In this document: piece after piece, positions 3,551 to 52,418 of the stretch
Layout of the letters: every line of letters begins with the position of its first letter
Position numbering within the stretch: position 1 is the first letter of the stretch
From: Pirellulales bacterium
Lineage (GTDB): Bacteria > Planctomycetota > Planctomycetia > Pirellulales > JADZDJ01
Reading direction: 5' to 3'
Assembly (NCBI GenBank): GCA_963716135.1
Contig: OY970289.1
Location: 1,783,462 to 1,847,461 of the forward strand
Length of the DNA: 64,000 nucleotides
Made by a program: the position numbers and the translations under genes
Notes under the pieces: model-generated
The model's database searches: none
What the model was told of the DNA's origin: nothing
What the model saw: the letters and a program-made list of their open reading frames with translations, nothing else

Positions 3551-3555
<5 letters not shown>

Positions 3556-3883: not shown

Positions 3884-3937
3884 GACTTTCCAACTCCAAT
3901 AAGACCAATAAGAATTGAGAATTTTGCGAAGGTCAAA

Positions 3938-4212: not shown

Positions 4213-4983
4213 ATGATTGATATCGATCGCCTGCTTGCCGAGACCTTCCTCACCCATGCCGAGTGCCACACCCAGCTCGATAGCACGCAATTCCGCGCCC
4301 GGGCTCTGGCAAACGAAGGCAGAGTGACCGCTCCGGCGCTGGTGGTGGCCGATCGCCAAACCGCCGGGCGCGGCCGGGGCAACAATCGCTGGTGGACGGG
4401 CGACGGCAGCCTGGCGTTCAGCCTGCTCGTGGATCCCCAGCAATTCGGTTTTCCGCCGCGGGTTGTGCCGCGATTGTCGTTGGCGGCCGGCGTGGCGGTG
4501 ATCGATGCCATCGCACCGCGACTGTCGGGGCAATCGCTGGGTTTGCACTGGCCCAACGATGTGAATATCGGCCGCGCCAAGTTGGCGGGAATTTTGGTCG
4601 AAGTATTGCCCGACGGCCGCCACATCATCGGTATCGGCCTGAACAGCAACAACACCGCAGCCGACGCGCCGCCGGAAATTCGAGAATCGATCGCGACGCT
4701 GGCCGATTTAACCGGCCGCCCGCACGACCACACCGAACTGCTCGTGGCGCTCTTGGAAAATCTGGAAGCCACGCTCGTGCAATTGGGCGAGCCCGTGGAA
4801 AGGCTCGGCGAGCGCTTCGATCTATTGTGCCTGCAGCGCGGCGAAGTGCTCACTGTGCATCAAGGCGAGCAACAGATCACCGGCCGCTGCATCGGCATCG
4901 CGCCGGACGGGGCATTACTGCTCGAAACGCCGGAAGGGCGAAAGGAAATTCTTTCTGGCACGCTAAAGCCGACGGGATGGTAA
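4213..4983 (+). CDS. birA: Biotin-[acetyl-CoA-carboxylase] ligase (group I BirA, no HTH)
   Basis: 256-aa ORF starting at ATG. 'VVADRQTAGRGRGNNRWWTGDGSLAFSLL' is the biotin-protein ligase GRGRxGRxW signature, and 'LHWPNDVNIGRAKLAGILVE' follows. Confidence 0.85.
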   Translation: MIDIDRLLAETFLTHAECHTQLDSTQFRARALANEGRVTAPALVVADRQTAGRGRGNNRWWTGDGSLAFSLLVDPQQFGFPPRVVPRLSLAAGVAVIDAIAPRLSGQSLGLHWPNDVNIGRAKLAGILVEVLPDGRHIIGIGLNSNNTAADAPPEIRESIATLADLTGRPHDHTELLVALLENLEATLVQLGEPVERLGERFDLLCLQRGEVLTVHQGEQQITGRCIGIAPDGALLLETPEGRKEILSGTLKPTGW

Positions 4984-4985
4984 GC

Positions 4986-5064
4986 AACGATAAACGATAA
5001 ATGCTAAATGATAAACGCGGAGCAAATGCCGCCATTTAGCGTTTATCGCTTAGCGTTTATCGTT
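4986..5064. repeat. Palindromic element, family A, second copy (bidirectional terminator position)
   Basis: Left arm is 'aacgataaacgataaatgctaaatgataaacgc' and right arm is 'atttagcgtttatcgcttagcgtttatcgtt'. It lies between the convergent birA and methyltransferase genes. The right arm supplies the last codons ('KRNDKR*') of ORF 5050..6096. Confidence 0.65.
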
Positions 5065-6096
5065 CCGCTTCGCCGCCACGCAAATTTCCTGCCGGTTATG
5101 GTGCAATTGCCGCGCTCGCACATGCCCGTAGCCCCACAAGCGGATGCGATCGAGATAAGCCGGTATCTCGTCCGCCAGTTTCCAGTCCAGCAGCTTGAGC
5201 GTCAGGATCAATCCCTTAATTTGCACTTCGGGATGCGTGACGATCGCTTCGACGGTATCCAGCGTGTACTGCGGCGCCACGTTGATGTCGGCCGTCAGAT
5301 AGTGCACGCCGCGGAATTCGCGCCGCTTCACGTCGGCGCCACGTTTCTTCAAGTGCGTGAAATTCGGATTCGCCAAGACCAGCGGATCCATGTTGGCCGG
5401 ATCGATGCCGATCACTTTCAAGCCATGATTCAACAATGCCTGGCTCGCTCCGCCCGGCGCACTGCCGATTTCCGCCCACACTTCTCCCGCGCGCAGCGGC
5501 GTGCGCGACCAGGCCAGCGATTCTTCCATTTTCAGGTAGGCCCGCGAAACCGCGTCGGCCGGCGGCTCCAGCGGGAACATGCCGCCGGGCCAGCGTGATG
5601 AAATCGACGCGGCGCGATGATATCCGAACCACCACTCGTGTGGCTCGACCACCACGCAGTCGAGCACCAGGTGCCCAGCCAGCGCGGAATTGGGAGGTTC
5701 ATATCTGCGAGGTTTCTTGATCGCCACCGCTAAGCCGCCGGCGGATGCAGCGACAGCTTCGTGATGCACGCCTTCCTGAACTCTGAACCCCGAACCCTCT
5801 GCTGCGCTCTCGCGAATTGCCGCTTCCACCTCGGCCGCCAACTGCGTCGGGCCGGGTTCATAACTGCGATATCCCGGTTCGTGCAAGTCGCGCTGCCACA
5901 CGTGCAAGCAATCGAACTTGCGCTCGCCGGCCAATTGCCAAACTTGGGCGGCGCGCTCTTCGATGGTCGCGCCGGCCGCTTTGCCCAATGAATATCCGTA
6001 CGACCGGGCGAACACGCTGTGCAAATCAAAGTCGTCCGCCAGAGCCCCTCTCCCTTCAGGAGAGGATTGTGCTGAGGGCGCCGCACCCGCGGGCAA
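5050..6096 (-). CDS. SAM-dependent RNA 2'-O-methyltransferase, RlmM/FtsJ-like
   Basis: 348-aa ORF. 'AVSRAYLKMEESLAW...GEVWAEIGSAPGGASQALLNHGLKVIGIDPANM...ADINVAP' resembles the RlmM (YgdE) C-terminal MTase layout. The first ~17 codons run through a palindromic repeat (6045-6078), so the true start is probably an internal TTG/GTG near 6015-6035. Confidence 0.7.
   Translation of the reverse strand: MPAGAAPSAQSSPEGRGALADDFDLHSVFARSYGYSLGKAAGATIEERAAQVWQLAGERKFDCLHVWQRDLHEPGYRSYEPGPTQLAAEVEAAIRESAAEGSGFRVQEGVHHEAVAASAGGLAVAIKKPRRYEPPNSALAGHLVLDCVVVEPHEWWFGYHRAASISSRWPGGMFPLEPPADAVSRAYLKMEESLAWSRTPLRAGEVWAEIGSAPGGASQALLNHGLKVIGIDPANMDPLVLANPNFTHLKKRGADVKRREFRGVHYLTADINVAPQYTLDTVEAIVTHPEVQIKGLILTLKLLDWKLADEIPAYLDRIRLWGYGHVRARQLHHNRQEICVAAKRNDKR
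6045..6078. repeat. Small palindromic repeat, family D (CCTCTCC..GGAGAGG..GAGGG)
   Basis: Stem CCTCTCC (6047-6053) / GGAGAGG (6059-6065) is followed by 'attgtgctgaggg'. A sister copy lies at 44675-44708 ('ccctctccc catgt gggagaggg ctggggtgagg'). Confidence 0.5.
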
Positions 6097-6255
6097 TTTA
6101 AAAGTCAGAAAACCGGGCCGCGAAAATGCAAACCGAAACGCCGGCCAGCGCCGAGCAAGCTCGGCCTTTAGCGCCGCTTCCGCGCCACCTGGCAGGTCAC
6201 AAAGATAAATCCCGGCGTTTCCATAACCGCAATTCTACCCGATCCGCCAGCGCAA

Positions 6256-6286
6256 GGAAAAACCCGCGGACTATTCGTCCGCGGGT
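6256..6286 (-). terminator. Rho-independent terminator downstream of hsp20
   Basis: Stem ACCCGCGGAC (6262-6271) / GTCCGCGGGT (6277-6286). On the minus strand it is followed by TTTTTCC (complement of 6256-6261), ~40 nt after the hsp20 stop. Confidence 0.7.
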
Positions 6287-6323
6287 TGCCTTGCCTCTGT
6301 TCCGCGTTAGCGAAACAGACCGA

Positions 6324-6776
6324 CTACTTAGTTTTGACGTCGATCTTACGGGGCTTGGCCTCTTCGGTCTTGGGGACCTTCACGGTCAGCACGCCTTCCT
6401 TGTATTCCGCCGTGATTTTGTCCGAATCGACCGCAGTCGGCAGCGGAATCACGCGGAAAAACTCGCCGTGATGTCGCTCCATGCGATGATAAGTCTTCCC
6501 CTTCTCTTGTTGCTCTTCTTTCTTCTCGCCCGAAATCCGCAGCTCACCGCCTTCCATCTCGACGCGGAAATCTTCGGGCTTCATGCCGGGCAGTTCGACC
6601 GTCACTTCGTAATCCGTCTGGGTTTCGGCCAGATTGATTCGCGGAGCGAACACTTCGCGCCCGACCGGCCATTCTTCGCGATTTCCGAAGAACCTGTTCA
6701 TCAGGTCCCCCATTTCGCTTTCGAAACTCGTGAGTGGCCAAGTAAAGTTCACTCGAGGAATAAGTGTTCTTACCAT
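6324..6776 (-). CDS. Hsp20/alpha-crystallin family small heat-shock protein
   Basis: The track ORF 6324..6911 is trimmed to ATG at comp. 6774-6776, which has GGAGGTG 4 nt upstream. 'APRINLAETQTDYEVTVELPGMKPEDFRVEMEGGELRISGEKK...FFRVIPLPTAVDSDKITAEYKEGVLTVKVPK' is a typical alpha-crystallin domain. Confidence 0.9.
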   Translation of the reverse strand: MVRTLIPRVNFTWPLTSFESEMGDLMNRFFGNREEWPVGREVFAPRINLAETQTDYEVTVELPGMKPEDFRVEMEGGELRISGEKKEEQQEKGKTYHRMERHHGEFFRVIPLPTAVDSDKITAEYKEGVLTVKVPKTEEAKPRKIDVKTK

Positions 6777-7063
6777 GACGCACCTCCAACAATCTTTGAC
6801 AATGCCTCGCAGGCTATCTTCCGGGCCACGCGCCCAGCGTGCCTGCTCGAAGTTTTCCCATAACTTCCCACTTATATTACGAGTGGGAGGGGCGCTCGGT
6901 TTTTCCGCCAAGACTCGGGCTGGGAAAACCGGAAATTTGCAATGGCTGAAACCATTGCGCCTGCCGCAACGGCAGTTGCTATGCCCCTGGAGAGTTATTA
7001 AGCAAACTGAATGCCAAGCCGAAATTTTTTGGACCAGGCCGGGATAGCCAATCTATGACGAAT

Positions 7064-8200
7064 TTACGGCGAGCTCGGTTTGCAGTTGCTCAGGGCTAGC
7101 AAGCAATACGCGCTAACCAGATTAGGATCGCCTTCCATGAACCGCTTGTCGGTGTTGACCCAACTGCCATCAGCTTGTTGCCGCTTGGCGAGTTCGGTCA
7201 CCAGTTCGGCCCGCCAATCGTGCTCGGCGCCTTTGGAGTCCGCAATCGTCTTTTCGCCCAAAGCACTCAGCGATTTTGCAAAAGTGTTGTAACCGTAATA
7301 CACACCCGCCTGGCCCAAGCCTGGGTTGGCGGTGAGATCGTAGTTCTTGCGAATCCAATCGACGGCCGCTTTGACGCGCTCGTCGTCCGGCGCCAGGCCG
7401 CAATAGATCATGCTTTTCAAGCCGGCATAGGTCATCGAGCCAAAGCTGCGCAAGCCGCCGTTATCCGTCTTTCCGCCCGGGGCGCTGGCGCCGTTGTCGG
7501 CCGGCGTGTAATAGAAGCCGCCGTCGGGATTCTTGTCGGCAAATTGCGTGGTGTTGTACTGGCTGGGCAAATTCTGGCACCGCGAAACAAACACCAGCGC
7601 CCGCTCCAACGCCTCGTGGTTCGTTTCGGCGCCCGCTGAATGCAGGGCATCGACCAAAAACGACGTGTTGGAAAGATCGGGCCGGGTGCCGCTTTTGCCG
7701 TAGCCGGCGCCGCCGTATTGCACATCGGCGGGCTGGGTCTTCCCGTTGCCCCCCCACTGAATGTTCTTCACGTAGTTGTTCGCCCGATCGATCAGTTCGT
7801 TGTAGCGGCCGTCCTTATTGGCATCCACAAAGCACATCAAGCCGATGCTCGTTTCATAGTTTTGGATGCTGGAGTCCGGCTGATAGATGCCGCCATCCTT
7901 TTGCACGAAGCCTTCCAGGTATTTCAAGCTCTTGGCCACCGCGGGATCATCCGGCGACATGCCGTTGCGCAATAGGGCGCTGGTGCACAGCGCGGTGACC
8001 GCCGGGCTGATCTTGGCGCTGTACGAGCCGTCGGCCGCTTGTCCCTTGCCGGTGAGATAGGCGATGCCGCGCTGGACGGTTTGTTGCTGCAGTTGCGGAT
8101 CGGCCTTCGCCGCCGTCTCGTCGGCCGCCGGCGCTGACGTCAGCCAGATCGCGAACACGCTTGAAACCGCCGCCGCGAAAACACAAAGCCTGGTGCGCAT
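7064..8200 (-). CDS. Secreted prenyltransferase/squalene-oxidase-repeat (alpha/alpha-toroid) protein
   Basis: 378-aa ORF with signal peptide 'MRTRLCVFAAAVSSVFAIWLTSAPA'. It carries repeated 'DGS(Y/W)' / 'GG(I/F)Y' toroid-repeat signatures ('QAADGSYSAK', 'KDGGIYQPD', 'NPDGGFYYTP', 'QQADGSWVNTD'). Confidence 0.7.
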   Translation of the reverse strand: MRTRLCVFAAAVSSVFAIWLTSAPAADETAAKADPQLQQQTVQRGIAYLTGKGQAADGSYSAKISPAVTALCTSALLRNGMSPDDPAVAKSLKYLEGFVQKDGGIYQPDSSIQNYETSIGLMCFVDANKDGRYNELIDRANNYVKNIQWGGNGKTQPADVQYGGAGYGKSGTRPDLSNTSFLVDALHSAGAETNHEALERALVFVSRCQNLPSQYNTTQFADKNPDGGFYYTPADNGASAPGGKTDNGGLRSFGSMTYAGLKSMIYCGLAPDDERVKAAVDWIRKNYDLTANPGLGQAGVYYGYNTFAKSLSALGEKTIADSKGAEHDWRAELVTELAKRQQADGSWVNTDKRFMEGDPNLVSAYCLLALSNCKPSSP

Positions 8201-36493: not shown

Positions 36494-37984
36494 ATGCCTT
36501 CTGCATCGTCAGGCTGTCGATTTTGCGTGCTCGCCTGCTTTCTGGCAGTGACAACCGTCTTTTTAGGTCGGGCTTCCGCAACTGAAACGATCACGAATTC
36601 TGAAGAGGCTCGCGAGCAACTTTACGCGGCTTATGCTAACCAGCTAAGCGAACTAGCCGCCGAATGTGATTCCAGCGGTCTGACGTCGCAAGCGCAGTTC
36701 ACGCGCAAGTGGCTGCCCAAGCGCGATCCGACGATGATCTATGTGTTTGCGCTGCCCGATTCATCCGCGCCGCCGGCGAAGCTCGTCGATTCGGAAGCGA
36801 GCCAGCAATGGTGGACGAAATTCACCGAGCTGCGACGCGGCCAGGCCGACAAGCTCTTCCAATTGGCCCAGTCGGCGGCCAAAGCCAAGCAACCCGCGCT
36901 GGCGTTTGAATTGGCGCGCGAAACGGTGCGTGAAAACCCCGACCACGCGCAGGGCCGAAAGATACTCGGCTTCGAAAAATATCAGGACTCTTGGAAAACC
37001 GCCGAAACGGTGCGCCGCCTAAAAGACGGGCAAGTCTGGAGCGATTCGTTCGGCTGGCTGCCCGCCGATCAATTGCCGCGCTACGAAAAAGGAATGCGCT
37101 ACTATCGCGGCAATTGGATCGACAAGGAGGAAGATGCCCGGCTGCACAGCAACATCAAGAACGGCTGGCATGTAGAGACCGATCATTACGCGGTCACGAC
37201 TAATCACAGCCTGGAAGAAGGAGCGCGGTTGGCCGGCCGGCTGGAAACGCTGTACGACGTGTGGCGGCAAGTGTTTCTGCCCTACTACGCCGGCGTGTCG
37301 GACGTGGAGCGCTGGTTTGCCGACGCAGCCATCCCCGCCGCTCCCCACAAATTGCACCAGGTGGTGTATTTCCGCGACAAAGAGCAATACGTCGATGCCC
37401 TGAAGCAGGCGCATCCGCAAATCGCCATGTCGCTGGGCATTTATATCGACACCGCCAACACGGCGTACTTTTTTTATGATGCGGAGCGTCACGATTCGAC
37501 GCTGAACCACGAAGGCACGCATCAGTTGTTCCAGGAAGTGCGCCCCGGCACGATCAAAGCCGGGGTGAAGAACAACTTTTGGATCGTTGAAGCCGTGGCG
37601 TGCTACATGGAATCGCTCGCCGAGCATCGCCTGCTGCCCGATGATCTTTACGGCAGTTACATCACCGTCGGCGGCGAAAATGAAGGCCGCGCGCCTGCGG
37701 CACGCAAGCGACTGCTGGACGACAACTTCTACGTGCCGCTGCGAGAATTGACGGCCTTCGGCCGAGATTCAATGCAGCACGATCCACGCCTGCCGATGAT
37801 CTATAGCGAAAGCTCGGGACTGGCGCTGTTCTTGATGGCTGCCGACGGTGGCCGCTACCGCGGGGCGCTGATGGATTATCTAATCGCCGTGTACACCGGA
37901 CACGCCGCGCCGGATGCGCTGGAAAAGCTTACCGGGCAGCGGTTCGAAGAACTCGATCGGCAGTACCGCGAGTTCATGAAGTAA
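36494..37984 (+). CDS. DUF1570-like putative zinc metallopeptidase (HExxH), secreted
   Basis: ATG 36494 gives 'MPSASSGCRFCVLACFLAVTTVFLGRASA'. 'HYAVTTNHSLEEGARLAGRLETLY...STLNHEGTHQLFQE' has an HExxH motif in the context typical of the DUF1570/peptidase-MA-like family. Confidence 0.72.
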   Translation: MPSASSGCRFCVLACFLAVTTVFLGRASATETITNSEEAREQLYAAYANQLSELAAECDSSGLTSQAQFTRKWLPKRDPTMIYVFALPDSSAPPAKLVDSEASQQWWTKFTELRRGQADKLFQLAQSAAKAKQPALAFELARETVRENPDHAQGRKILGFEKYQDSWKTAETVRRLKDGQVWSDSFGWLPADQLPRYEKGMRYYRGNWIDKEEDARLHSNIKNGWHVETDHYAVTTNHSLEEGARLAGRLETLYDVWRQVFLPYYAGVSDVERWFADAAIPAAPHKLHQVVYFRDKEQYVDALKQAHPQIAMSLGIYIDTANTAYFFYDAERHDSTLNHEGTHQLFQEVRPGTIKAGVKNNFWIVEAVACYMESLAEHRLLPDDLYGSYITVGGENEGRAPAARKRLLDDNFYVPLRELTAFGRDSMQHDPRLPMIYSESSGLALFLMAADGGRYRGALMDYLIAVYTGHAAPDALEKLTGQRFEELDRQYREFMK

Positions 37985-39277
37985 GCGACGGCTGTTCGTC
38001 TGCTTGCGGTTTGCCGCTGGCCGCCTGCCACGCGTCTTTACCGCAGGCGAATGCGTTGGGAGTGTGCACGTGCTCCGGCGCGCGCCCATGCCGACCATGC
38101 GCGCTGGAATGCGCCGTAATCGCGGCCAACGGTGCAGCCAACGTACGATTCGCGGAGGCTTGATTTGCTGCGTCGCCGTGATGGCCCGATTGATCACTCG
38201 ATTTTGAATGAACACTTGCACGCGCTGCGTCACTCGTGTGGGAAACTCGCGGCGGCGCTGCACGCGGTGTAAATCGGTCAGCGTGAGCGATTTGTCTTTT
38301 AGCGGCGCGGCCAGCAAGTTTGCGGTAGCGACCGCATCTTGAATTGCCAGGTTGATGCCCACGCCGCCCACCGGCGACATCGCGTGCGCCGCATCGCCGA
38401 TGCACAATAGCCCCGGCTTGTACCAACGCTCCAGGCGATCGATTTTCACGGTCAGCAGGCGGATGTCGTCCCAGGTGCGCAGCTCGTTCACGCGGTCGCC
38501 CAAAAATGGCGAGATTTCCAAAATCCGCGCCCGGAATGCTTCCAACCCGCGGGCCCGCACTTCATCGTAGCCTCCTTTGGGAATCACGTACGCACATTGC
38601 CAGTACTGGCCGCGGTAGATCATCACCAAAATGCTGCCGGCCGACACCTGGCCCAGCGGAATCAACGGGTCGCTCTCTTTGCGGGAAATCCGCATCCATA
38701 GCACGTCGATCGGCGAGCCGAAATCGCGCACCTTAAAGCCGGCGCGGTCGCGGAGCGTTGAGTGGCGCCCATCGCTGGCGACGGTCAATTCGGCCCGCAC
38801 TTCCAACGGTCCCTCCGGCGTTTCGGCATGCACGCCGACGACGCGGTCATCCTCTTCGATTAAATTGGTCACATTCGCCTGCATCCGCAGATGGAACGTC
38901 GGATATTTTTTCGCCTGCTCGGCCAAGAAATTCAGGAAATCCCATTGCGGCATCAGGGCGATGAACTTGCAGTGCGTCGGCAGGTAGCGGAAATCGGCGA
39001 TCATGGTTTCGAAATCGCCGATCTTGCCGGCCAGTTGCTGCACCTCCTGATGCTCGCGCTTCAGGAATTGTTCCAACAGGCCCAGTTCGTACATCACTTC
39101 CAGCGTGGAAGGATGGACCGTGTCGCCGCGAAAATCGCGCAAGAAATCGCCGTGCTTCTCCAGCACGGTCACGTCGACGCCGGCGCGGGCCAGCAGATAG
39201 CCGAGCATCATCCCGGCCGGTCCGCCGCCAGTGATGCAGCAGGTAGTTTGAACGGTTTTTGGTGTTTGGTTGCTCAT
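37974..39277 (-). pseudogene. FAD-dependent monooxygenase (UbiH/PheA-type fold), one frame break near the 3' end (~38080-38092)
   Basis: 'CCITGGGPAGMMLGYLLARAGVDVTVLEK' is the GxGxxG motif, with 'ASDGRHSTLR' and 'LLCIGDAAHAMSPVGGVGINLAIQDA'. After 'RIPARMVGMGAR' the family-typical 'PEHVHTPNAF' continues in another frame (track ORF 37974..38426). Uncorrected, the ORF runs 105 nt into the convergent gene. Confidence 0.85.
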
Positions 39278-39281
39278 GCGT

Positions 39282-39374
39282 GAAGTCTAGGTCGAAAAGT
39301 CCAAAAGTCTAAAAGTCGAAAAGTGCCGACCTGTTCTCTCTTTGACTCGTAGGCTTTTCGACTCTTCGACTTTT
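39282..39374. repeat. Word-built hairpin (words AAAAGTCGAAAAG)
   Basis: Left arm is 'gaagtctaggtcgaaaagtccaaaagtctaaaagtcgaaaagtg' and right arm is 'ctttgactcgtaggcttttcgactcttcgactttt'. It lies between yjbQ (stop 39380) and the monooxygenase start (39277). Confidence 0.55.
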
Positions 39375-39379
39375 AAACC

Positions 39380-39801
39380 TCACTCGCCAATGATTTTCAC
39401 CAGCACTCGCTTCCGCCGCCGGCCGTCGAATTCGTAGTAGAAAATATGCTCCCACGGGCCAAGATGCAGTTGGCCCTTGGTAATGGCCACGACCACTTCG
39501 CGCCCATCACCTGGCGCTTCAAGTGCGCATCGGCGTTATCTTCGCCGGTGCGGTTGTGGTGGTACGTCTTCGACGAAGCGTCGAACGGCGCCAGCTTTTC
39601 CAGCCACAGTTCGTAATCGTGGTGCAGGCCCGATTCGTTGTCGTTGATGAAGACCGACGCGGTGATGTGCATGGCGTTCACCAGCGCCAGGCCCTCCTTC
39701 ACGCCGCTGTCGCCGACGGCCTTTTCCACTTCGCGGTGAATCGAAACAATCGCCCGGCGCTGGGGCACTTCCATCCACAGTTCTTTGGTGAAGGTTTTCA
39801 T
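39380..39801 (-). pseudogene. yjbQ: YjbQ/UPF0047 family protein (secondary thiamine-phosphate synthase-like), one frame break (~39497-39506)
   Basis: The pieces are: '[29 protein letters not shown]...[34 protein letters not shown]...[20 protein letters not shown]' | '[40 protein letters not shown]'. The second part is in the adjacent frame, with its stop at comp. 39380-39382. Confidence 0.85.
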
Positions 39802-39917
39802 TGGGCTGCCACAAAATCCCGCTTGATTTGACGGCATTATAGCAGCAGACGGCTCAGATTGGCCCGGAAGTTGCATCATCTTTACCCGCACCGTAGGGAC
39901 TGCCAGAGGAGGCAAAT

Positions 39918-40487
39918 ATGCATTCGGCATTGATCGACACCAGATCGCGCACCAGAACGCACCGACAGGCTTGGGCAAACGAGACCAGCGAAGAGCGCGA
40001 AGTCGATCGACTGGAGCAGATTGCGTATTGGCTGGATAGCGCGTTCCGCGTGCCCGGCATCGGCTTGCGGTTCGGTTTCGACGCCATCCTGGACTTACTC
40101 CCGGGCGTTGGCGACGCGCTGGGCGCGCTCTTGTCGATGTACATCTTCCAGGCCGCGCGGCGGTTTGGCGTGCCCCGCGTCACGCTGGCGCGCATGGCGA
40201 TGAATATCGGCATCGACTACATCGGCGGTTTGGTGCCGTTCTTCGGCGCGATCTTCGACGCCTATTGGAAAGCGAACATTTGGAACGTCGGTCTATTGAA
40301 GCGGCATATCAAGGCAACGCCGCAAGAAGCCCGGCGAGCCCGTCGCGGCGACGGCGTGTTTGTGGCGCTGTGCATTGTCGGGCTGGTGCTGTTTATGGTC
40401 GCCACCTTTGCTCTGTTTGCGCTGGCGATCGCCTTGGTTGCCCAATTCTTCGCCCACATCGGCGGCCCGCGCAATTCGATCATCTAA
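39918..40487 (+). CDS. DUF4112 membrane protein
   Basis: 189-aa ORF. '[79 protein letters not shown]' is the DUF4112 core. Confidence 0.8.
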
Positions 40488-41772: not shown

Positions 41773-43001
41773 TCAGGGCGGGCTGCGGCACGCGCTGCAC
41801 ACGGCGCGACGCCGGCGGCCGACATAGCCAGTGGCCACCAGCGCCATTGCCGCCAGCACGATGCCCGACGGTTCGGGCACCAGCGTGTAGCCGATCAGGT
41901 CCAACGCCAGAATGTCGAGCGGCGTTACGATGCCCAACTCGCCGTCGTCGATGTTCGGATCCATGATCCCAAACGGCGGGCCGGGAAATGTGTAGGTGCT
42001 GTCCTTCCAGTGTTGCGCCTGGTACCCGTCGCCGAAGTTGATGCCCGTGGAAAACAGTGCGGAGGACGTGACGCCGCCGTCGTAGGACAAATAGGGATTG
42101 TCGCCGGGCACGTCGCTTGTGCCGGCGGCCCAATCGAGCACGGCGCCGCTAAGGGGCTGATCCACCAACGACGTGCTGTCGGCGGAGTAGCGGAACAAAT
42201 CGAGCACGGTAAAGATCGTTTCCGTCGAGTAGTCGTGAGGGTAATCGGGTCCATCGTGACCGGCGCCGTCGGAACTGGCGTAGTCGATGTGGTCCACGCC
42301 GCTAATGAATCCCATGCCGTGCGCCAGCTCGTGCGTGAGGACGGCGGTAAAGTCGATCTTTCCGGCGTCGATTCCGTCGCTGGGATCGAAATCCATGATG
42401 GGGAAGTAGATCGAGTTCACGACGATCGTGCCGTCGGCACCAGGCCGCCGTCCGCGCCCGGCAGCAGGCCCAAGGCCTTCTGGTTGGCGCGCGTCAGCCG
42501 CAGCGTGGAGTTGTAGACCAACGGGGCGGTCACATGCATGCGCAGCGACGGGGCGCCGGCCGTGTCGTTGGTGATCATGCTCAGCGCCGGCCCGGGCTGC
42601 AGCGAACTGACGGCCGAGGCGTCGTGCGCGGAAGTGCTGTCCAGGGCCAGCGCCGCGGCCACCGAACTGTAAGCGAATGGGCTGGTCGTCGGATCGACAT
42701 CGAAATAGCCCAGCGGTCCGCCCGGGATCGACGCTTCCACTAATTTGAAGTGCAGCACGATCGGATCGGCAAACTCGCTTTCCCACGTGCCGGTGGCGAT
42801 GCTGACCGAGGTCGCCAGGCCGCTCATGACCGGTGGAGGAAGCGGTGAGCCGACGTAGGGTAGCTCGATCAGCATCGCCGCGGCCGGCGACGCCGCCCAG
42901 AGAACTACAGCGACCGACAATGCGAGCACGCAGGCGCAGCGCGCGGTCGGCGAAGCCTTGGCGCACCTGGGCGGATGCGGTCGGCCGATGAATGCCGCCA
43001 T
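41773..43001 (-). pseudogene. Secreted HExxH metalloprotease with PEP-CTERM sorting signal, one frame break (~42431-42437)
   Basis: The N-part (track 42417..43001) has a signal peptide and '...LGLLPGADGGLV'. The C-part (other frame) reads 'DGTIVVNSIYFPIMDFD...AVLTHELAHGMGFISG...WKDS...IMDPNIDDGE...' and ends in 'LVPEPSGIVLAAMALVATGYVGRRRR' (PEP-CTERM). Confidence 0.8.
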
Positions 43002-43510
43002 GAAGGGACTCTCCTGTGGGCGAGACTGGCAACGAGAAAAGCAGATAAGTCGATTTCGCCTCGCGCTGGCGGAAGGGTAACACGGGGCGAAATCCGCGGC
43101 CAGCGTTTGGCAAGTTAGTGGAGGAGTTTTGCACCACCTTAAGGGGATTCCCTACATCTGCAGAGGGGACAGGCGCATGGCGGAGGGAATTCTCACGCAA
43201 AGGCGCGGAGACGCTAAGAAGAGGAGAATAGGAGACAAGGAGACATGAGCGCGCAGGGATAAACAGTTCCGCGCGAGGCGGGTTTTGTGCGATCGGCCCC
43301 GAGGGGTCGTGCATCCTTCGACACTTTTCCGAACAAGTCGGGAAAGGCTCAGGACTATAGGTTTGGCGATCGATCGGTGGGCTGGAATGCCTTGGACCAG
43401 CCCATTGAAGCTTGGCTGCCGATCGACCTCACGACCCCGGCGCTGGCTCCTGCGGCGGACCCATGCATGGGGTGAACGCGGGAGGGGAGCGCTTGGTCGG
43501 GCCGGGTTGC

Positions 43511-43584: not shown

Positions 43585-43819
43585 AGTGTGGACATACTTC
43601 GCTGGGCACCGGCGGCAAGGCGTCGCGACCTGTTTATGTCCGAATTCGGGCGCAACATTGGCTCGCCCTTGCGAGCGGGACCTTTCGTCATGAGCACTGG
43701 CTGAACTTCTAGAAAGCCAACCACGAGCTGTACCACAGACCGCGACCGACGGTTCGCGGCTTTATGGTTTGCCCGATGCTCATCTAGCGGGAAGGGGCGA
43801 AGCTGGCGTTGCCGTGTTT

Positions 43820-43945
43820 CACCGCGGAGACGCAGAGACGCGGAGAGGAAATTTCCAACTGCGAATCTCCCTCGCGCGGTGAAGCGTTCAACGACCACAC
43901 GCAACATACACGAAGTGGTGGCCCAATTTCAAGGATCGTTTTGGG
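43820..43945 (+). repeat. Direct repeat copy 1 (~125 bp, imperfect) upstream of the higBA-like module
   Basis: '..ccgcggagacgcagagacgcggagagg..gttcaacgaccacacgcaacatACACGAAGTGGTGGCccaatttcaaggatcg' aligns by eye with 44712-44838. The identical 15-mer is at 43908-43922 and 44806-44820. Confidence 0.6.
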
Positions 43946-43965: not shown

Positions 43966-43993
43966 TTGACACATATAGTCTATAAGCTATAAT
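43966..43993 (+). promoter_or_regulatory. Consensus sigma70-type promoter of the TA module with embedded palindrome
   Basis: TTGACA (43966-43971) - 16 nt - TATAAT (43988-43993). The spacer contains the palindrome TATAGtCTATA (43974-43984). The first ATG lies 2 nt and the second ATG 8 nt after the -10 box. Confidence 0.6.
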
Positions 43994-43995
43994 TC

Positions 43996-44358
43996 ATGGG
44001 CATGTGGGCAGTCGAATATACCGATGAGTTCGAGCAATGGTGGAATTCGTTGGATGCGTACGAGCAACGTTCGGTCGATGCGAGTGTGGAACTTTTGCGC
44101 GAAGCAGGGCCGCGGCTTGGTCGGCCGCATGCGGATACACTTCACGGTTCGAAACATTCCAACATGAAAGAGTTGCGAACGCAGCATGAAGGGCGTCCGC
44201 TGCGAACGCTATTTGCCTTCGATCCTCGTCGCAGCGCGATTTTGCTGATTGGTGGCGATAAGACCGGCGACGATCGATTTTACGAACGCATGATTCCATT
44301 GGCAGATCGTTTGTATGACGAACATTTGGAAACACTTAAGCGAGAAGGGCTAATCTAA
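43996..44358 (+). CDS. RelE/ParE-superfamily toxin, HigB/Gp49-like
   Basis: 120-aa ORF. 'WAVEYTDEFEQWW..L...RLGRPHADTLHGSKHSNMKELRTQHEGRPLRTLFAFDPRRSAILLIGGDKTGDDRFYERMIPLADRLYDEHL' fits the Gp49/HigB-type killer pattern. It is followed by an XRE antitoxin, in toxin-first order. The start may be the second ATG (44002) if the mRNA is leaderless. Confidence 0.8.
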   Translation: MGMWAVEYTDEFEQWWNSLDAYEQRSVDASVELLREAGPRLGRPHADTLHGSKHSNMKELRTQHEGRPLRTLFAFDPRRSAILLIGGDKTGDDRFYERMIPLADRLYDEHLETLKREGLI

Positions 44359-44669
44359 TGGCCAAAAACTTTCGAGAATTAGAAGCAAAAATGAAGCCGG
44401 AGCATCGAGCCTGGGCCAAAGCACGGGCGAAGGAGATGATGGCGGAGATGCTGCTGGCGGAAATTCGCCGCAGCACCGGCCAGACTCAAAAGGAGGTCGC
44501 GGAAATCTTGGGCGTCAAGCAACCGACCTTGTCGCGCCTCGAATCGCAAGACGACATGCAAATCAGCACGTTGAATCGACTGATCGAAGCGCTGGGCGGC
44601 AAGCTAGAAATCATCGCCCATCTGCCCAAAGGCGACATCCGCATCAGCCAATTCACCGACGCCGCTTAA
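44358..44669 (+). CDS. XRE-family HTH antitoxin (HigA-like)
   Basis: 103-aa ORF whose ATG overlaps the toxin stop (TAATG). Its HTH is 'TGQTQKEVAEILGVKQPTLSRLESQDDMQISTLNRLIEALGGKLEI'. Confidence 0.85.
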   Translation: MAKNFRELEAKMKPEHRAWAKARAKEMMAEMLLAEIRRSTGQTQKEVAEILGVKQPTLSRLESQDDMQISTLNRLIEALGGKLEIIAHLPKGDIRISQFTDAA

Positions 44670-44674: not shown

Positions 44675-44708
44675 CCCTCTCCCCATGTGGGAGAGGGCTG
44701 GGGTGAGG
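44675..44708. repeat. Family D palindrome acting as terminator-like hairpin after the antitoxin
   Basis: 9-bp stem CCCTCTCCC (44675-44683) / GGGAGAGGG (44689-44697), then 'ctggggtgagg'. It starts 6 nt after the stop. A sister copy lies at 6045-6078. Confidence 0.55.
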
Positions 44709-44711
44709 AGT

Positions 44712-44838
44712 TCGCCGCGGAAATCGCTAGACGTCGCGGAGGGCGCAATTCCTCGTGGTGCGTCAGTAGGCCCGTGGTGAGTTGTTCAACGTCCACGCGC
44801 ACTTTACACGAAGTGGTGGCTCGATTTCAAGGGATTCT
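44712..44838 (+). repeat. Direct repeat copy 2 upstream of the HEPN-motif gene
   Basis: '..ccgcggaaatcgctagacgtcgcggaggg..gttcaacgtccacgcgcactttACACGAAGTGGTGGCtcgatttcaagggattc'. I estimate ~75-80 percent identity to copy 1 by eye; this was not computed. Confidence 0.6.
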
Positions 44839-44910
44839 TGAGTGACTTTCTCTTCACTTTGTTATATTTGGCAGCGGACGAATTTTGTTCACGAAAGATT
44901 GTGGTGGAGT

Positions 44911-46245
44911 ATGTCCTACGACAAAAAGAAGCTTGCAAATTATGTTAGCGAACTGCTGTCCAATACGACCGCTGATTTTGAGAAAGTCGATCGAGATCGC
45001 CCCTACTCGATCTTAGGCGGCGCCGGGTCGCATGTTGAACTTACAAACCAAGCAGGACAAACGTTTGTTGGTAAAATGTCCGAGGAAGGAACGCCCACTC
45101 TTTACATCCTTGAAGCCGGGCTCCGTTCGCTCTATGCATTTGTGGATGAATGTCTTAAGGACCGCGAGTTTGCCACAAAGATTGGGAGCGACGCATTGGT
45201 CAAGCATCTTCAGGCTACGGCCAAAAAGTTCTATGCGGTGTCGCCCAGTGACCTAGATCTTGCAAAGATTGTGAAGGAAGACATCTTGCAGGCATTACGC
45301 GCAGAGATCAGGCAATGGCGCGTTCACGTTCCGATCAGCAACTTGCAAATCCAGCAGCCGCTAACGATTGGCAGGGTAACTTTCGTTCGGCACGAAGAGG
45401 GAGTAGTCGCTAGCACAAAGATTATTATTGATCATCAGGGACCTCCTAATGCTGATCGGAGTACATCGGACAAGGCAGCCCTATTAGTCACGATCGGTGC
45501 AATTTCTCAGCAGGGGTCAGCGTGGGCGGTCGCGGAGATTGAATCACACGAGAAAAGAGTTAGCGAAGTTGCTAGAGAGGAGATTGAAACCGCGGTGAAT
45601 GTGATTCGAGCGTTCACGCATGTATTTAATTCGCGTTCACTTCATTCGGCCTTTGGGCTGCCCTATGAACTAACCAATGGAACGGCGGGATTCATTTCGC
45701 AGTCTAAAGATCTGTTTTTAATTCAGATGGATCGCAGGGGTTTCTTTCATCCGTTTGATTTGAATGAGATCGTCGTAACGAAACTCAAAAGCGAGTATTA
45801 CTTCGATCAGCTGGTTAGGATTGCTGGAACGGCGTGGGGCTCACTTAATTCTTTGGAGAAAGCGGTACGAGTGGCTTTTCACTGGCTCGGTCGTTCAATC
45901 ATCGCGCTTACGAAGGCAGAAGCGTTCACCCAGTGTGTCATTGCGCTCGAAAGACTGTTGATCACCGACGACGAGGAGACAACTGTCGAGCGATTTGCTG
46001 ACCGTTTGGCGTACTTACTTTCAGATAAATCTGATGAGCGTAAAGCGATTCATAGGGCAGCCAAACGGCTTTACGACGTCCGCTCGAGAATTGTCCACGC
46101 GGGATTTGATTCCATTGAGGAACGTCAAATCCAGGAAATCGAGAATCTGGCTGTCGGCGGGTTGGTTAAGGCGGCTTCGCTATTGGACAGCCTTGTTGAC
46201 CACAATGCTTTGCGTGATTACTTCCACAATTGCAAGATGACGTAG
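44911..46245 (+). CDS. 444-aa protein with unassigned N-terminal region and C-terminal HEPN-like domain (R-x4-H motif); candidate Abi/ApeA-like defence effector
   Basis: ATG 44911 is preceded by GGTGGAG. G+C is visibly lower than in the flanks. The C-terminal ~130 aa 'LEKAVRVAFHWLGRSIIALTKAEAFTQCVIALERLLI...RFADRLAYLLSDKSDERKAIHRAAKRLYDVRSRIVHAG' shows the helix pattern and the 'Y..RSxIVH.G' (R-x4-H) signature of HEPN RNase domains. I recognise no other domain. Confidence 0.75.
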   Translation: MSYDKKKLANYVSELLSNTTADFEKVDRDRPYSILGGAGSHVELTNQAGQTFVGKMSEEGTPTLYILEAGLRSLYAFVDECLKDREFATKIGSDALVKHLQATAKKFYAVSPSDLDLAKIVKEDILQALRAEIRQWRVHVPISNLQIQQPLTIGRVTFVRHEEGVVASTKIIIDHQGPPNADRSTSDKAALLVTIGAISQQGSAWAVAEIESHEKRVSEVAREEIETAVNVIRAFTHVFNSRSLHSAFGLPYELTNGTAGFISQSKDLFLIQMDRRGFFHPFDLNEIVVTKLKSEYYFDQLVRIAGTAWGSLNSLEKAVRVAFHWLGRSIIALTKAEAFTQCVIALERLLITDDEETTVERFADRLAYLLSDKSDERKAIHRAAKRLYDVRSRIVHAGFDSIEERQIQEIENLAVGGLVKAASLLDSLVDHNALRDYFHNCKMT

Positions 46246-46431: not shown

Positions 46432-46465
46432 GCTCCGGAGGCTGTTAGCCTCCGGCTATTTTTTT
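46432..46465 (+). terminator. Rho-independent terminator closing the islet
   Basis: Stem GCTCCGGAGGCT (46432-46443) / AGCCTCCGGC (46447-46456), followed by TATTTTTTT (to 46465). The orientation fits the + strand only. It overlaps the last codons of the convergent ygiQ. Confidence 0.7.
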
Positions 46466-48533
46466 CGCGGGCGGCGGTTTGTGTTGCGGTGGGGGCGGTA
46501 GCCGACGCCTGTGTTGGATTGTTTCGTGCTTTTCGTGAGTTTCGTGGTTGGCCGCGCGTCGTGCGACGGCTCGGCGGGAGCCTCGCCCTCCCGGGTGGAG
46601 CGCGGTTTGGTGCGCGACCCCCGGGCCGAGCCCGGGGCTAAGGGGGTGGCGCGGATGTGATCGCCGGAAGTTTCGTTTAGGGATTCGTTTGCTTTGCGGC
46701 GGCGGCGGGAGAGGGCTTCCTTTGGCGGGCGCTCCGGAATCAGGCAATCGCAGCCGTTGCCGATTAGATCCTGGCGGCCGGCTTGTTCTAGGGCTTTGCG
46801 CACTTCGAAATAGTTTTCGGGTTTGAAGAATTGCAATAGCGCGCGCTGCAGGCGGCGGTCGCGGAGGTGTTTGGCGATGTAGACCGGCTTCATCGTGAAC
46901 GGGTCGTAGCCTGTGTGGTACATGCAGGCGGCGATGTCGAAGGGGCTGGGGATGAAATCTTGGACCTGGTCGGGGCGGTAGTGGTTGCGCTTGAGGAACA
47001 GGGCCAGATCGATCATCGCGTTCAGATCGCTGCCGGGATGGCTGGCGATGTAGTACGGGATGAGGTACTGCTTTTTGCCGGCGGCTTTCGATTGGCGGCG
47101 GAAGGAGTCGGAGAACTTTTCGAAATCGTCGTTGCTGGGTTTTTTCATCTTCTCCAGCACGCCGGGGTCGGTGTGTTCGGGGGCGACCTTCAGATGGCCG
47201 CCGACGTGGTGCTGGGCCAGTTCGCGCATGTAGACCGGGTCGCGGCGGGCCAGGTCCATGCGGATGCCGGAGGCGACCAGCACTTTTTTGACGCCGGGCA
47301 GTTCGCGCGACTTTTTCATCAGGTCGATCAGCGGGCCGTGGTCGGTGCCCAGCAGTTTGCAGATGGTGGGATGGACGCAACTGAGTCGGCGGCAGACGGC
47401 TTCGACCTCGGGGCGGGAGCAGCGCATCTGGTACATGTTGGCGGTGGGGCCGCCGATATCGCTCACGACGCCGGTGAAATCGGGCTGGGTTTGCCGCATG
47501 CGCTCGATTTCCGCGAGCACCGATTGCTGGCTGCGGCTTTGGATGATGCGGCCTTCATGAGCGGTGATGCTGCAGAAGGTGCAGCCGCCGAAGCAGCCGC
47601 GCATGATTTGCACGGAGTGCTTGACGACGTCGTAGGCGGGGATTTTTTCCCGGCCGTAGCTGGGGTGCGGGCGGCGCGTGAACGGCAGGCCGTAGACGCG
47701 ATCCATTTCGGCTTGCGTCAGCGGCAGCGCGCCGGGGTTGACGACGATCGCTTCGGTGCCGTGGCGCTGCAGGAGGCGCTTGGCGTTGTAGGGGTTGGTT
47801 TCCTGGTGGGAGATTTTGGTCATCAGGCAGAAGGTGCGCTTGGATTGCGCATCGTCGGCGGAGATTGTTTCGTAGGGGGGGAGTTCGATGGTGGGGGGAT
47901 CGAAGGCGGAATTCGGAAGGCGGAAGGCGGAGGTTTCTTTGGCGCCAAGCGATATGCCACGCCGCGCAGGGTGCGCAGGTCTTTTACGGTGGCGCCGGCG
48001 GCGAGGCGGTGGGCGAGTTCGATGATCGGGCGTTCGCCCATGCCGTAGACCAACAGGTCGCACTTGGCGTCCATCAGGATGCTGCGGCGGACCTTGTCGC
48101 TCCAGTAGTCGTAGTGGGCGATGCGGCGGAGGCTGGCTTCGACGCCGCCGGCGATGATGGGGACGCCCTTATACGCCTCGCGGGCGCGCTGGCAGTAGGC
48201 CAGCGTGCAGCGGTCGGGGCGGCGGCCTATTGCGCCGCCGGGGCTGTAGGCATCGTCGTTGCGCACTTTGCGGTTGGCGGTGTAGTGGTTGATCATCGAA
48301 TCCATGTTGCCGGCGCTAATGGCGAAAAACAGCCGCGGCTTGCCGAAGGTGCGCCACGGCTCGCAGGAATGCCAATCGGGCTGGCTGAGGATGGCGACGC
48401 GGAAGCCTTCGTCTTCCAACAGGCGGCCGAGCAGGGCCATGGCGAAGCTGGGGTGATCGACGTAGGCGTCGCCGGTGACGAAGACGATGTCGACGTAGTC
48501 CCAGCCGCGCTCGTGCATTTCGGCGCGGGACAT
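46456..48533 (-). pseudogene. ygiQ: YgiQ-family radical SAM protein (UPF0313), one frame break (~47945-47952)
   Basis: The N-domain starts from ATG comp. 48531-48533: '[54 protein letters not shown]...[13 protein letters not shown]...LRGVAYR'. It continues in another frame as '[27 protein letters not shown]...IMRGCFGGCTFCSITAHEGR...' (CxxxCxxC). It has a basic C-terminal tail. The track's longer N-terminus is encoded by a word repeat and is probably not translated. Confidence 0.85.
47901..47933. repeat. Purine-word array, family E (AAGGCGGAATTCGGAAGGCGGAAGGCGGA), inside ygiQ
   Basis: 'cgAAGGCGGAATTCGGAAGGCGGAAGGCGGAgg'. Near-identical 30-mers lie at 52344-52372 and 55760-55790. Here it is read antisense as '[13 protein letters not shown]' in the ygiQ linker, right next to the frame break. 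Confidence 0.65.
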
Positions 48534-48540
48534 GGGAAGC

Positions 48541-48600
48541 GGCGAAGAGTGCGGAGTGCGAAGTTCGGAGGGCGGAGTGGATGGAGTGCGGCGGGCGGCC
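48541..48600. repeat. Purine-word array (GCGGAGTG / GCGAAG words) upstream of ygiQ
   Basis: 'ggcgaagagtgcggagtgcgaagttcggagggcggagtggatggagtgcggcgg'. It accounts for the spurious Pro/Ser-rich N-terminal extension of track ORF 47823..48701. Confidence 0.5.
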
Positions 48601-48863
48601 AGCGAGCCGACGAGGTCGATGTAGGGACCAAGCGCGCGGCCGAATTCGTCGGAGCGCGGGGGGTCGATGATCGGCAGCGGATTGAATGTGGGCGCGGACA
48701 TAAGGATCGCTCAAAGCAAGCGGCACCCTTGATTGTAGGCGAGGCGGGGTCAGGAAGTGAGTGGCTGGAGAAGAACTAAGAGCTATGAGCAATGAACAAT
48801 GAGCAAACGGCGGAATGCATTACCGTTCAATGTTCTTTGTTCAAAGCTCATAGTTTGCCGTCG

Positions 48864-50676: not shown

Positions 50677-50971
50677 CTCTTCTTCTCCTGGCCCGAGGCA
50701 AACGCCTAAGGCGTTCTCCTACCGAATTTTAACACAATAACGAAGTATTTTGATTCAGCAAGTGAACGGGTTCCTTGGGGGACGGTCTGAGCAGTTGAAC
50801 CAGAGGGGCAGGCGCGGATCGGCGAATTACAATGAAGAATTCCTTAAAAATTGATCGTGAGGCGGTGTGGGGCCTGCGGAGCGGGTTTGACGATTTGTCG
50901 TAAGCCGTTTAGGCTAAATGTGTTGTCCTCTTTTCTCGGCTAGCAAGGCCGGCGCACTCCCAGGAGTGATT

Positions 50972-52418
50972 GTGAAGCAGAAAGCCTGGTCGGGAGTATT
51001 CAGCGAGGCGACGGATCGCCGGGTCGAGCAGTTCACCGAAAGCATCAGCTTTGACCGGCGATTGTACGCGCATGATGTAACTGCATCGATTGCGCATGCC
51101 CAAATGTTAGTCACTGTCGGCCTTATCACTGCCGAGGAATGCCGACAGATTGAGCAAGGATTGGGCGCGATTCGCCAAGAGATTGAGCAAGGTAAATTCG
51201 AGTTTCGCTCGGAGCTCGAAGACATTCATCTGCACATCGAGCGGGCGCTGGTGGAGCGCATCGGCGACGTCGGGCGGAAGCTGCATACGGCGCGAAGCCG
51301 CAACGATCAGGTTTCGACGGATCTGCGGCTGTGGTGTCGGGAGGCGATTGACCGAATTGATGCGGCACTGGCGGGCGTGCAGCGGGCGTTTGTCGAGCGA
51401 TGCGACGTCGATCGGGACGTGATTTTGCCGGGCTACACGCACATGCAGCGCGCAGCCGGTGCTGGCGCCGCACTACTGGTTGGCCTACTGCGAAAAATTC
51501 GAGCGTGATCGCCAGCGATTGGCGGATTGCCGAAGGCGAGTGAATGTGTTGCCGTTGGGGGCGGCGGCGCTGGCGGGCACCAGTTTGCCCATCGATCGCG
51601 AAGATGTTGCGCGGCGGTTGGGCTTTGTCAACGAGCGCGGCCAACCGCAGGTGATGAGCAACAGCATCGATAGCTCCAGCGATCGCGATTTTGTGATCGA
51701 GCTGGCGTTTGCGCTCTCCGTCGTGTCGGAGCATTTGAGCACCTGGGCCGAGGAATGGATTTTGTGGAGCACGGTCGAGTTTGGGTTTTTGAAATTGCCG
51801 CAGGCGTTTTGCACCGGCAGTTCGATCATGCCGCAGAAGATCAATCCCGACGTGCTGGAATTGGTGCGCGGCAAGACGGCGCGGGTGATTGGCAATTTGC
51901 AATCGCTGTTGGTTTTGGTGAAGGGGTTGCCGTTGGCCTATAACCGCGATCTGCAGGAGGACAAAGAGCGGATTTTTGATTCGGTCGACACGGTGTCGGC
52001 GTGTTTGGAGATTGCGGCGCCGCTGGTGGCGGGGGCGGAATTGAACAAGGCGGCGATTGCGGAGAAGTTGGATCGCGGATATTTGGATGCGACCACGCTG
52101 ATGGAGGAATTAATTCGGGGCGGCACGCCGCAGCGGACGGCGCATGAGATGGTTGGGAAGTTGGTGAAGGCAGCGATGGATCAGGGAGTGCGATTGGCGG
52201 ATTTGCCCAGCGAATTATTGGATGGCGAGCTTAAGGATGCGCTGGGGGTGAAGAATGCCGTGGCGCGATTTGTCAGTTATGGATCGACGGGGCCAAAGGA
52301 AGTTGCGCGGCAGGTTCAGATTTGGAAAGAGAAATTGACACCTGAAGGCGGAGTTCGGAAGGCGGAAGGCGGAACGCAGAAGACAGAAGGCAAACGGCAG
52401 AAGGCGAAAAAAACATGA
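50972..52418 (+). pseudogene. argH: Argininosuccinate lyase, one frame break (51447-51455) and a repeat-encoded C-terminal tail
   Basis: GTG 50972 has AGGAG 5 nt upstream. The pieces are: '[43 protein letters not shown]...[18 protein letters not shown]...[10 protein letters not shown]' | '[17 protein letters not shown]...GSSIMPQKINPDVLELVRGK...'. The conserved QRAQPV is restored by adding GC to the (GC)n run. The last ~25 aa 'PEGGVRKAEGGTQKTEGKRQKAKKT' are encoded by word arrays E+F. Confidence 0.9.
52344..52412. repeat. Composite purine-word array (family E then family F) forming the argH 3' end
   Basis: 'gAAGGCGGAGTTCGGAAGGCGGAAGGCGGAacGCAGAAGACAGAAGGCAAACGGCAGAAGGCgaaaaaaac', followed by ATGA (argH stop / next start). 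Confidence 0.65.

Follow-up and report, generated by a model that had tools for sequence, protein, structure and literature searches.

A gene on the forward strand of a 64,000-nucleotide stretch of DNA from a Pirellulales bacterium (contig OY970289.1; the whole stretch is called the window below) is predicted to encode an autonomous, two-module HEPN nuclease that probably acts in defence or abortive infection. The C-terminal part of its 444-amino-acid (aa) product is, as judged from sequence profiles, a distant homologue of the HEPN domain of the anti-phage protein ApeA, and it is joined to an N-terminal region of mixed alpha/beta fold. The open reading frame (ORF), located at 44911-46245 in a preliminary description made from the nucleotide sequence, is present in the ORF list as described there, and the strings quoted from its translation ('EKAVRVAFHWLGRS...RSRIVHAGFDS', 'VTFVRHEEGVVASTKIIIDH', 'AWAVAEIESHEKR' and 'EIRQWRVHVP') all occur in the protein. 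The gene and the parts of the protein are as follows, with conservation counted in an alignment of 92 family members:

44911..46245, + strand: coding sequence (CDS) for all 444 aa and the stop codon, from the ORF list
44911..45795, + strand: N-terminal region, residues 1-295, a confident mixed alpha/beta fold in the AlphaFold model
45796..46242, + strand: predicted C-terminal HEPN domain, residues ~296-444, from a profile search against the PDB, AlphaFold2, Foldseek and the RefSeq names of relatives
45949..45951, + strand: codon of E347, in the 'IALExLL' string of HEPN helix 2; conserved in 92/92 and aligned with 'IAIESL' of Ec2ApeA
46072..46104, + strand: predicted catalytic motif Y388-x2-R391-S392-x3-H396-x-G398 (R-x4-H), from its conservation and its alignment with Y499...R502...H507 of Ec2ApeA
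45310..45327, + strand: R134-x4-H139 string, fortuitous and outside any active site, H139 not being conserved

The longest form of the ORF that ends at 46245 begins with a GTG at 44842 and would give 467 aa; the ATG at 44911 gives 444 aa. Since an N-terminus equivalent to M1 is found in all 21 close homologues ('MSYDKKKLA', with M1, Y3, K7 and L8 conserved), the ATG at 44911 is the likely start and the upstream GTG an unlikely one.

The C-terminal HEPN domain

In the alignment of 92 members, whose mean identity is 20%, E347, R391 and H396 are the sole invariant columns (92/92 each), and the near-invariant ones are G154 and Y388 (91/92 each), G398 (86/92) and S392 (84/92, with N in a further 5/92). 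The Arg/His pair, which fits the R-x4-6-H motif of the HEPN superfamily and whose conservation was checked in both sets of homologues, is likewise present in 21/21 of the close ones, and the family signature can be written 'IALExLL ... LY-x2-R-S-x-I-V-H-x-G'. A bare R-x4-H string occurs in at least one place in 62% of shuffles of the protein sequence, and in at least two in 23%, so that the significance of R391 and H396 lies in their conservation across a divergent alignment and not in the occurrence of the motif. The protein itself contains three such strings, at positions 134, 275 and 391, and the one at 275 had been overlooked. For the string at 134, the suspicion that it might be fortuitous was borne out: H139 is found in only 1/21 close homologues, where the residue is usually R, and the wider family has I, Y, L or F at this position, so that a second active site at R134-x4-H139 is ruled out.

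A profile of residues 300-444 (A3), made from 41 sequences, was searched against all PDB chain sequences. Eight distinct sequences were matched at E ≤ 10, every one of them an ApeA (Ec1, Ec2, Ec3, Ec4 and Thr1ApeA), and the best was Ec2ApeA with E = 1.7e-9; the assignment of the C-terminus to HEPN, made earlier from the letters alone, thus found its counterpart in these five ApeA homologues and in nothing else. The alignment consists of two collinear blocks. In one, the helix carrying E347 stands opposite 'LNLWIAIESL' of Ec2ApeA; in the other, 'LYglRSkIVHeG' of the family stands opposite 'IYRTRNLIVHTG', so that R391 corresponds to R502 and H396 to H507. The chain of an R502A mutant of ApeA, a substitution that abolishes defence, scored 7 bits lower with the same profile, which shows that the family arginine is aligned with the catalytic R502. 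Searches of the PDB sequences with the single sequence and with a 21-sequence profile returned only noise (PAN3, antibody chains). Weak matches of family members are confined to HEPN-type models, namely RiboL-PSP HEPN, Csx1/Csm6, CARF-HEPN and DzbB, and full-length relatives are labelled 'HEPN domain-containing protein' in RefSeq.

The AlphaFold2 model of the full-length protein has a mean predicted local distance difference test score (pLDDT) of 89 and a predicted template modelling score (pTM) of 0.83, and the C-terminal domain modelled alone reaches a pLDDT of 97.6. The helices of the domain span residues 298-306, 314-330 (H1), 335-350 (H2, with E347), 359-370 (an insert), 374-397 (H3), 404-423 (H4) and 431-443. 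A four-helix region had been proposed, and a four-helix core is indeed modelled, but it is not a bare bundle, as extra helices accompany it. The Arg/His pair had been placed at the start of the last helix; in the models R391-H396 instead occupies the C-terminal end of helix 374-397, which is followed by a loop, by helix 404-423 and by one helix more. According to PMC3710099, the canonical HEPN motif ends helix 3 and runs into the loop to helix 4, with a polar residue directly after the arginine and an acidic residue upstream in helix 2. In the window protein S392 follows R391 and E347 lies within helix 335-350, and the modelled placement of the motif and of E347 matches this canonical description.

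Foldseek comparison of the domain model with the PDB gave 2hsb as the top match (probability 0.97, TM-scores 0.55/0.62, root-mean-square deviation 4.2 Å), with an E-value of 0.39 that is not significant alone; the second match, 1wol (probability 0.84, TM-scores 0.50/0.58, E = 1.1), is not significant alone either, and 4nqf and HepT 7ae6 ranked lower. Both 2hsb and 1wol are crystal structures of HEPN proteins. Taking into consideration the invariant residues, the profile matches to ApeA and the structure model, we regard residues ~296-444 as very probably forming a HEPN domain that is, by prediction, catalytically competent.

The N-terminal module and the spread of the family

The model of residues 1-295 interleaves 13 strands with 10 helices, with strand regions at 33-66, 134-160, 204-212 and 258-284, and the pTM of the full-length model indicates that this region packs against the HEPN domain in a fixed arrangement. 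The initial ~55-65 residues are peculiar to a Planctomycetota-centred clade, and residues ~65-295 are common to the wide family. Few positions are conserved in it (P141 81/92, G154, R233 79/92, G249 72/92, and an aromatic residue at 136), and they are not obviously catalytic. The N-terminal region gave no match in Pfam or NCBIfam, nor in the PDB sequences when these were searched with the full-length profile, and a Foldseek search of the full-length model against the PDB and BFVD returned nothing at E < 0.1. These results agree with the description of the region as mixed alpha/beta with no assignable domain, and so does the lack of a nucleotide-binding or transmembrane motif: there is no Walker A/P-loop, and the highest 19-residue Kyte-Doolittle mean is 1.21. 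From the architecture of the protein, and by analogy with ApeA, this region may serve as a sensor or regulator.

The query itself has no Pfam match at E ≤ 1 and no NCBIfam match. A word-indexed search of 5.8 billion proteins found 21 close homologues, 437-470 aa long and matched over their full length at 24-60% identity, with named sources in Planctomycetota (Schlesneria, Rhodopirellula, Planctomycetales, Phycisphaeraceae) and in an Armatimonadetes metagenome-assembled genome (MAG); among 185,579 species genomes, seven loci of this close family were present. A family profile built from the 21 homologues was scored on 1.84 billion cluster representatives, and matched 7,543 of them at E ≤ 1e-3, 2,296 at E ≤ 1e-10 and 174 at E ≤ 1e-30. 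As most of the best 150 matches are 400-460 aa long and align over profile positions ~60-443, the two-module layout is common to a large and divergent family.

The family is spread over Planctomycetota, Bacillota, Pseudomonadota, Deinococcota, Armatimonadota and haloarchaea, and tblastn detected plasmid-borne members in Priestia, Agrobacterium, Sinorhizobium, Deinococcus, Listeria and the archaeon Halomicrobium. Comparison with hhalign placed the Priestia protein in the family with a probability of 99.9% over 396 columns, the N-terminal part included, and the Agrobacterium protein with 99.2%; neither of these relatives has a match to a Pfam or NCBIfam hidden Markov model (HMM). Word-indexed searches with the A3 and A2 alignments gave few proteins and no fresh annotation. 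The family has no name, and the label that RefSeq already gives it, HEPN-containing, is a generic one.

Genomic contexts of the family and of the window gene

The neighbours of the family gene differ at every locus examined and no partner gene is conserved, from which its status as a solo gene follows. The contexts are:

L001 (Schlesneria): divergent from a type I hsdM-hsdS-hsdR operon, with an integrase and McrBC nearby
L005: type I restriction-modification (R-M) genes, a Schlafen/AlbA_2 gene and integrases
L014: immediately 3' of an MmeI-type R-M gene
L015 (Planctomycetales MAG), 1180-8200: between genes for an N6/N4 DNA methylase (903 aa) and a ResIII helicase (952 aa), all three in the same orientation and separated by 68 and 10 bp
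L004: near ArdC, a giant DEAD helicase and a methylase
L006: amid DUF5677 and DUF2513 genes
L008: amid small unknown genes and a SUKH immunity gene
L002 and L012 (Rhodopirellula): 3' of trpE, which lies 180 bp upstream on the same strand
L007: adjoining an esterase gene
Agrobacterium plasmid: with TIR, GIY-YIG, integrase and antitoxin genes
Sinorhizobium plasmid: with GIY-YIG, VapBC and integrase genes
Deinococcus plasmid (L022), 5468-6696: adjoining a 1,147-aa DEAD/DEAH helicase gene and a Bil-like multiubiquitin/E2/E1/DUF6527 cluster
Halomicrobium plasmid: adjoining DUF262
Priestia plasmid: adjoining McrBC-like genes
Listeria plasmid: adjoining a recombinase gene

The R-M operon that encloses the family gene at L015 is type III-like. 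On the Deinococcus plasmid the family gene apparently falls into two CDSs, one of 162 aa labelled 'hypothetical' and one of 246 aa labelled 'HEPN domain-containing'. When the neighbourhoods of homologues were checked, no recurrent housekeeping operon with a conserved partner emerged, and many of the homologues lie beside or inside R-M, defence or mobile genes; trpE of Rhodopirellula is the sole repeated housekeeping neighbour. These contexts, ~17 in number and compared qualitatively, are clearly biased to defence and mobile genes and point to lateral acquisition.

In the window, the HEPN gene lies within a low-GC islet of ~2.5 kb, the guanine-plus-cytosine (GC) content being 0.46-0.51 across the gene against ~0.60-0.66 in the flanks. 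The islet and its surroundings contain the following further elements:

43996-44358, same strand as the HEPN gene: Gp49/HigB-type toxin (PF05973, E = 6.8e-21)
44358-44669, same strand as the HEPN gene: helix-turn-helix (HTH) antitoxin, overlapping the toxin gene by 1 nt
44695..44840, + strand: non-coding stretch 5' of the HEPN gene that repeats 43803-43940, 5' of the toxin-antitoxin (TA) operon; from sequence comparison
46435..46465, + strand: terminator-like hairpin followed by a T-run, with a 9-bp stem of 7 GC pairs; a consensus match only

The Gp49/HigB-HTH pair is a complete type II TA module, independent of the HEPN gene, whose start lies 241 nt beyond the antitoxin stop. The toxin is also similar to NsnC of the PADLOC Menshen system, over the C-terminal 100 residues of NsnC (E = 4.7e-13). 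A perfect sigma-70 consensus (TTGACA-16 nt-TATAAT, 12/12) at 43966-43998 ends 2 nt before the toxin ATG, which implies a leaderless TA transcript. The direct repeat is ~140 nt long and ~74% identical overall, with 82% identity in its last 60 nt, and the resulting layout is [repeat]-TA-[repeat]-HEPN; its core 27-mer, ACACGAAGTGGTGGCYCRATTTCAAGG, occurs twice in the 64 kb where no occurrence is expected. It was not found in 18 related loci. As it has no Rfam match and folds no better than its shuffles, a structured RNA or an Rfam family is unsupported. The repeat may act as a common operator or promoter region, or it may be a scar left when a cassette was inserted. The hairpin lies 190 nt 3' of the stop codon of the HEPN gene and could serve either this gene or the convergent ygiQ.

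Upstream, the islet is flanked by genes for an FAD monooxygenase, UPF0047, DUF4112 and CMD proteins and by a 513-aa ORF that Pfam does not match; downstream lie genes for a ygiQ radical SAM protein, TPM and LemA, and argH. No tRNA gene is present in the window, and the ORFs inspected around the islet included no obvious integrase. The 513-aa ORF (41773-43314, - strand; GC 0.66) ends in a PEP-CTERM-like tail, '...PEPSGIVLAAMALVATGYVGRRRRA'. The ygiQ-type gene (46456-48701, - strand) consists of two overlapping ORFs in different frames, one covering positions 2-200 of Radical_SAM_N and the other its positions 211-301, which indicates a frameshift near 47.9-48.0 kb, in either a pseudogene or an assembly indel. 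The argininosuccinate lyase gene argH, on the + strand, is also apparently split, into 50918-51508 and 51459-52418, and the presence of two such broken housekeeping genes in 6 kb suggests indel errors in the assembly. The GC skew of the window turns from negative to positive at ~37000-40000, with an origin-like cumulative minimum near 39 kb; no cluster of DnaA boxes was found, the 64 kb holding 5 matches to TTATCCACA (at most one mismatch) against 5.7 expected.

Known systems, rival explanations and proposed function

ApeA is a single-gene HEPN anti-phage system (Gao et al. 2020), whose structures have been deposited as 9HXB-9HXN (bioRxiv 10.64898/2026.01.26.701840). It acts by abortive infection as a single protein that cuts tRNA anticodon loops, it forms a decameric or dodecameric ring, and a pocket between its N-terminal and HEPN domains binds an activating dinucleotide. 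The window protein resembles it in its homologous HEPN domain, with a common 'IA(L/I)E(S)L' helix and a common 'Y-x2-R-(S/N)-x-I-V-H-x-G' motif, in occurring as a single gene with no conserved partner, and in its R-M-embedded or defence-island contexts. The differences are substantial, however. ApeA has 546-619 aa, is predominantly alpha-helical and is built of an N domain (1-198), a Mid domain (199-309) and a split HEPN domain of ~250 aa with large insertions, whereas the window protein combines a compact 145-aa HEPN domain with its strand-rich alpha/beta region, and has ~40 residues between the E helix and R-x4-H where Ec2ApeA has ~115. The full-length family profile covers only residues ~319-384 and ~489-534 of ApeA, and the N-terminal stretches of ApeA contribute ~0 bits; together with the contrast between an alpha/beta model and a helical protein, this indicates that the N-terminal region is neither the N nor the Mid domain of ApeA. 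The models HEPN_Apea (PF18739) and ApeA_NTD1 matched neither the 92 relatives (E ≤ 0.01) nor the C-terminal domain alone (E ≤ 10), and the ApeA model is absent from the PADLOC matches of the query and of the family. Because the HMMs of ApeA, its N and Mid domains and its split HEPN all find no counterpart, the protein should not be filed as ApeA. In a control attempt, two fragments of Ec2ApeA were used as tblastn queries on plasmids and phages and gave no match.

The best structural matches (TM-scores 0.50-0.62) are minimal HEPN proteins and toxins, AF_0298 (2hsb), ST0689 (1wol) and HepT (7ae6/5yep), with which the modelled domain would share the four-helix core and an R-x4-H that ends helix 3. 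These are, however, stand-alone domains of ~120-145 aa, usually paired with an MNT nucleotidyltransferase antitoxin, whereas the HEPN domain described here is fused to a 295-aa module. No MNT gene is present in the window neighbourhood, where the only nearby TA genes are the Gp49-HTH pair, absent from the other loci; lacking a partner, the protein is not a toxin of the HepT/MntA type. With PrrC, RloC and DARNA it would share the fusion of a HEPN RNase to a larger regulatory or sensor module that keeps it silent until infection. The N-terminal domains of PrrC and RloC are ABC-ATPases, though, and in DARNA the HEPN domain is N-terminal and followed by a helical C-terminal domain that binds single-stranded DNA; no sequence match to any of the three was found, and none resembles the alpha/beta module. 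The sole PADLOC model matched by the query is Dazbog DzbB (PDLC03836), over residues 358-413 in the region of the R-x4-H helix, with E = 0.006. This match is marginal, covers ~55 residues and recurs in 3/92 members (best E 3.4e-4), and Dazbog is a two-gene system, whereas the window gene has no conserved neighbour, as seen in comparisons that included no scan aimed at DzbA. A literature search on Dazbog/DzbB found nothing, and an identification as DzbB is not convincing.

Three other explanations of the gene were weighed against that of an autonomous defence nuclease. The adjacent TA locus might include the HEPN protein as a third component, either neutralised or repressed by the HTH protein or co-regulated through the shared repeat. 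The common strand and the short distance, the ~140 nt of similar sequence 5' of both units and their position in one low-GC islet all speak for this. Yet a Gp49 or HTH pair accompanies the family gene in none of the other ~16 contexts examined, the pair is a typical two-gene module with a perfect promoter of its own, and the repeat is likewise missing from related loci; as the arrangement is not conserved, the tripartite reading, which we consider very unlikely, was dropped. It is also rather unlikely that the HEPN gene is an accessory or back-up of R-M systems, a suicidal RNase licensed by R-M failure, with the window copy as an orphan. Such a role was proposed for HEPN genes embedded in R-M operons by Anantharaman et al., ApeA-type and other HEPN genes are described there in PMC3710099, and 4 of ~11 close-family contexts adjoin or sit in R-M operons. 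In most contexts, however, that of the window among them, R-M genes are missing from the ~7-10 kb around the gene, and the R-M types vary (type I, IIL and III-like), a variety that agrees better with co-location in defence islands than with a dedicated functional link.

A third explanation, which we hold to be highly improbable, is that of a housekeeping or stress enzyme of RNA processing, or of a non-catalytic binding protein of HEPN type, outside conflict systems. The ordinary metabolic genes that flank the islet would agree with it, as would the position of the Rhodopirellula gene after trpE. Against it stand the patchy spread of the close family (21 homologues in 5.8 billion proteins, seven loci in 185,579 species genomes), the atypical GC content and the variable neighbours, and the invariance of E347, R391 and H396 argues against a non-catalytic role.

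We favour the autonomous two-module nuclease, on which several observations nonetheless weigh. The nuclease or defence role is a prediction for every member of the family, and the sensor role, the dimerisation and the RNA target are all taken by analogy. A tblastn search of 50,697 phage records with two family members gave no match, and hence no direct link to phages; PADLOC models reach marginal E-values at best for the query and the family; the bias of the genomic contexts comes with no enrichment statistic; and some close homologues lie next to ordinary genes, namely trpE in Rhodopirellula and an esterase gene at L007, as does the window gene, whose flanks are ordinary on both sides.

From HEPN biology and from ApeA, we propose that two HEPN domains would dimerise to form a composite, metal-independent RNase site, and that the N-terminal module would hold the nuclease silent until it meets a cue derived from infection, for which small molecules, nucleic acids and phage proteins are candidates. 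The activated enzyme would then cut cellular RNA. By analogy with ApeA, PrrC, RloC and DARNA, anticodon loops of tRNA would be the likeliest site, and yet tRNA as the specific target of this protein is doubtful. The resulting arrest of translation would block phage propagation. We put forward tentatively, as a possibility somewhat short of even, that the N-terminal module is an undescribed sensor fold and that the family is a widespread, unnamed single-gene anti-phage system, which would gate RNA cleavage as ApeA does, in response to a different cue.

Solo HEPN defence nucleases are already known as a kind, and the HEPN assignment will be unsurprising to specialists; what is new is an N-terminal module with no matched fold, and this, together with the size of the family and its absence from defence databases, makes it worth experiment. 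ApeA, PrrC and DARNA are emerging models of how a generic signal of infection is turned into suicide at the level of RNA, and each new N-terminal module of these solo nucleases has so far brought a new kind of trigger. As the family is large and broad, lies outside Pfam, has no significant PADLOC match and has a core tied to a solved relative, it is a tractable place to discover trigger classes. For annotation, thousands of proteins now called 'hypothetical' or 'HEPN domain-containing' become readable as predicted two-module, ApeA-like nucleases.

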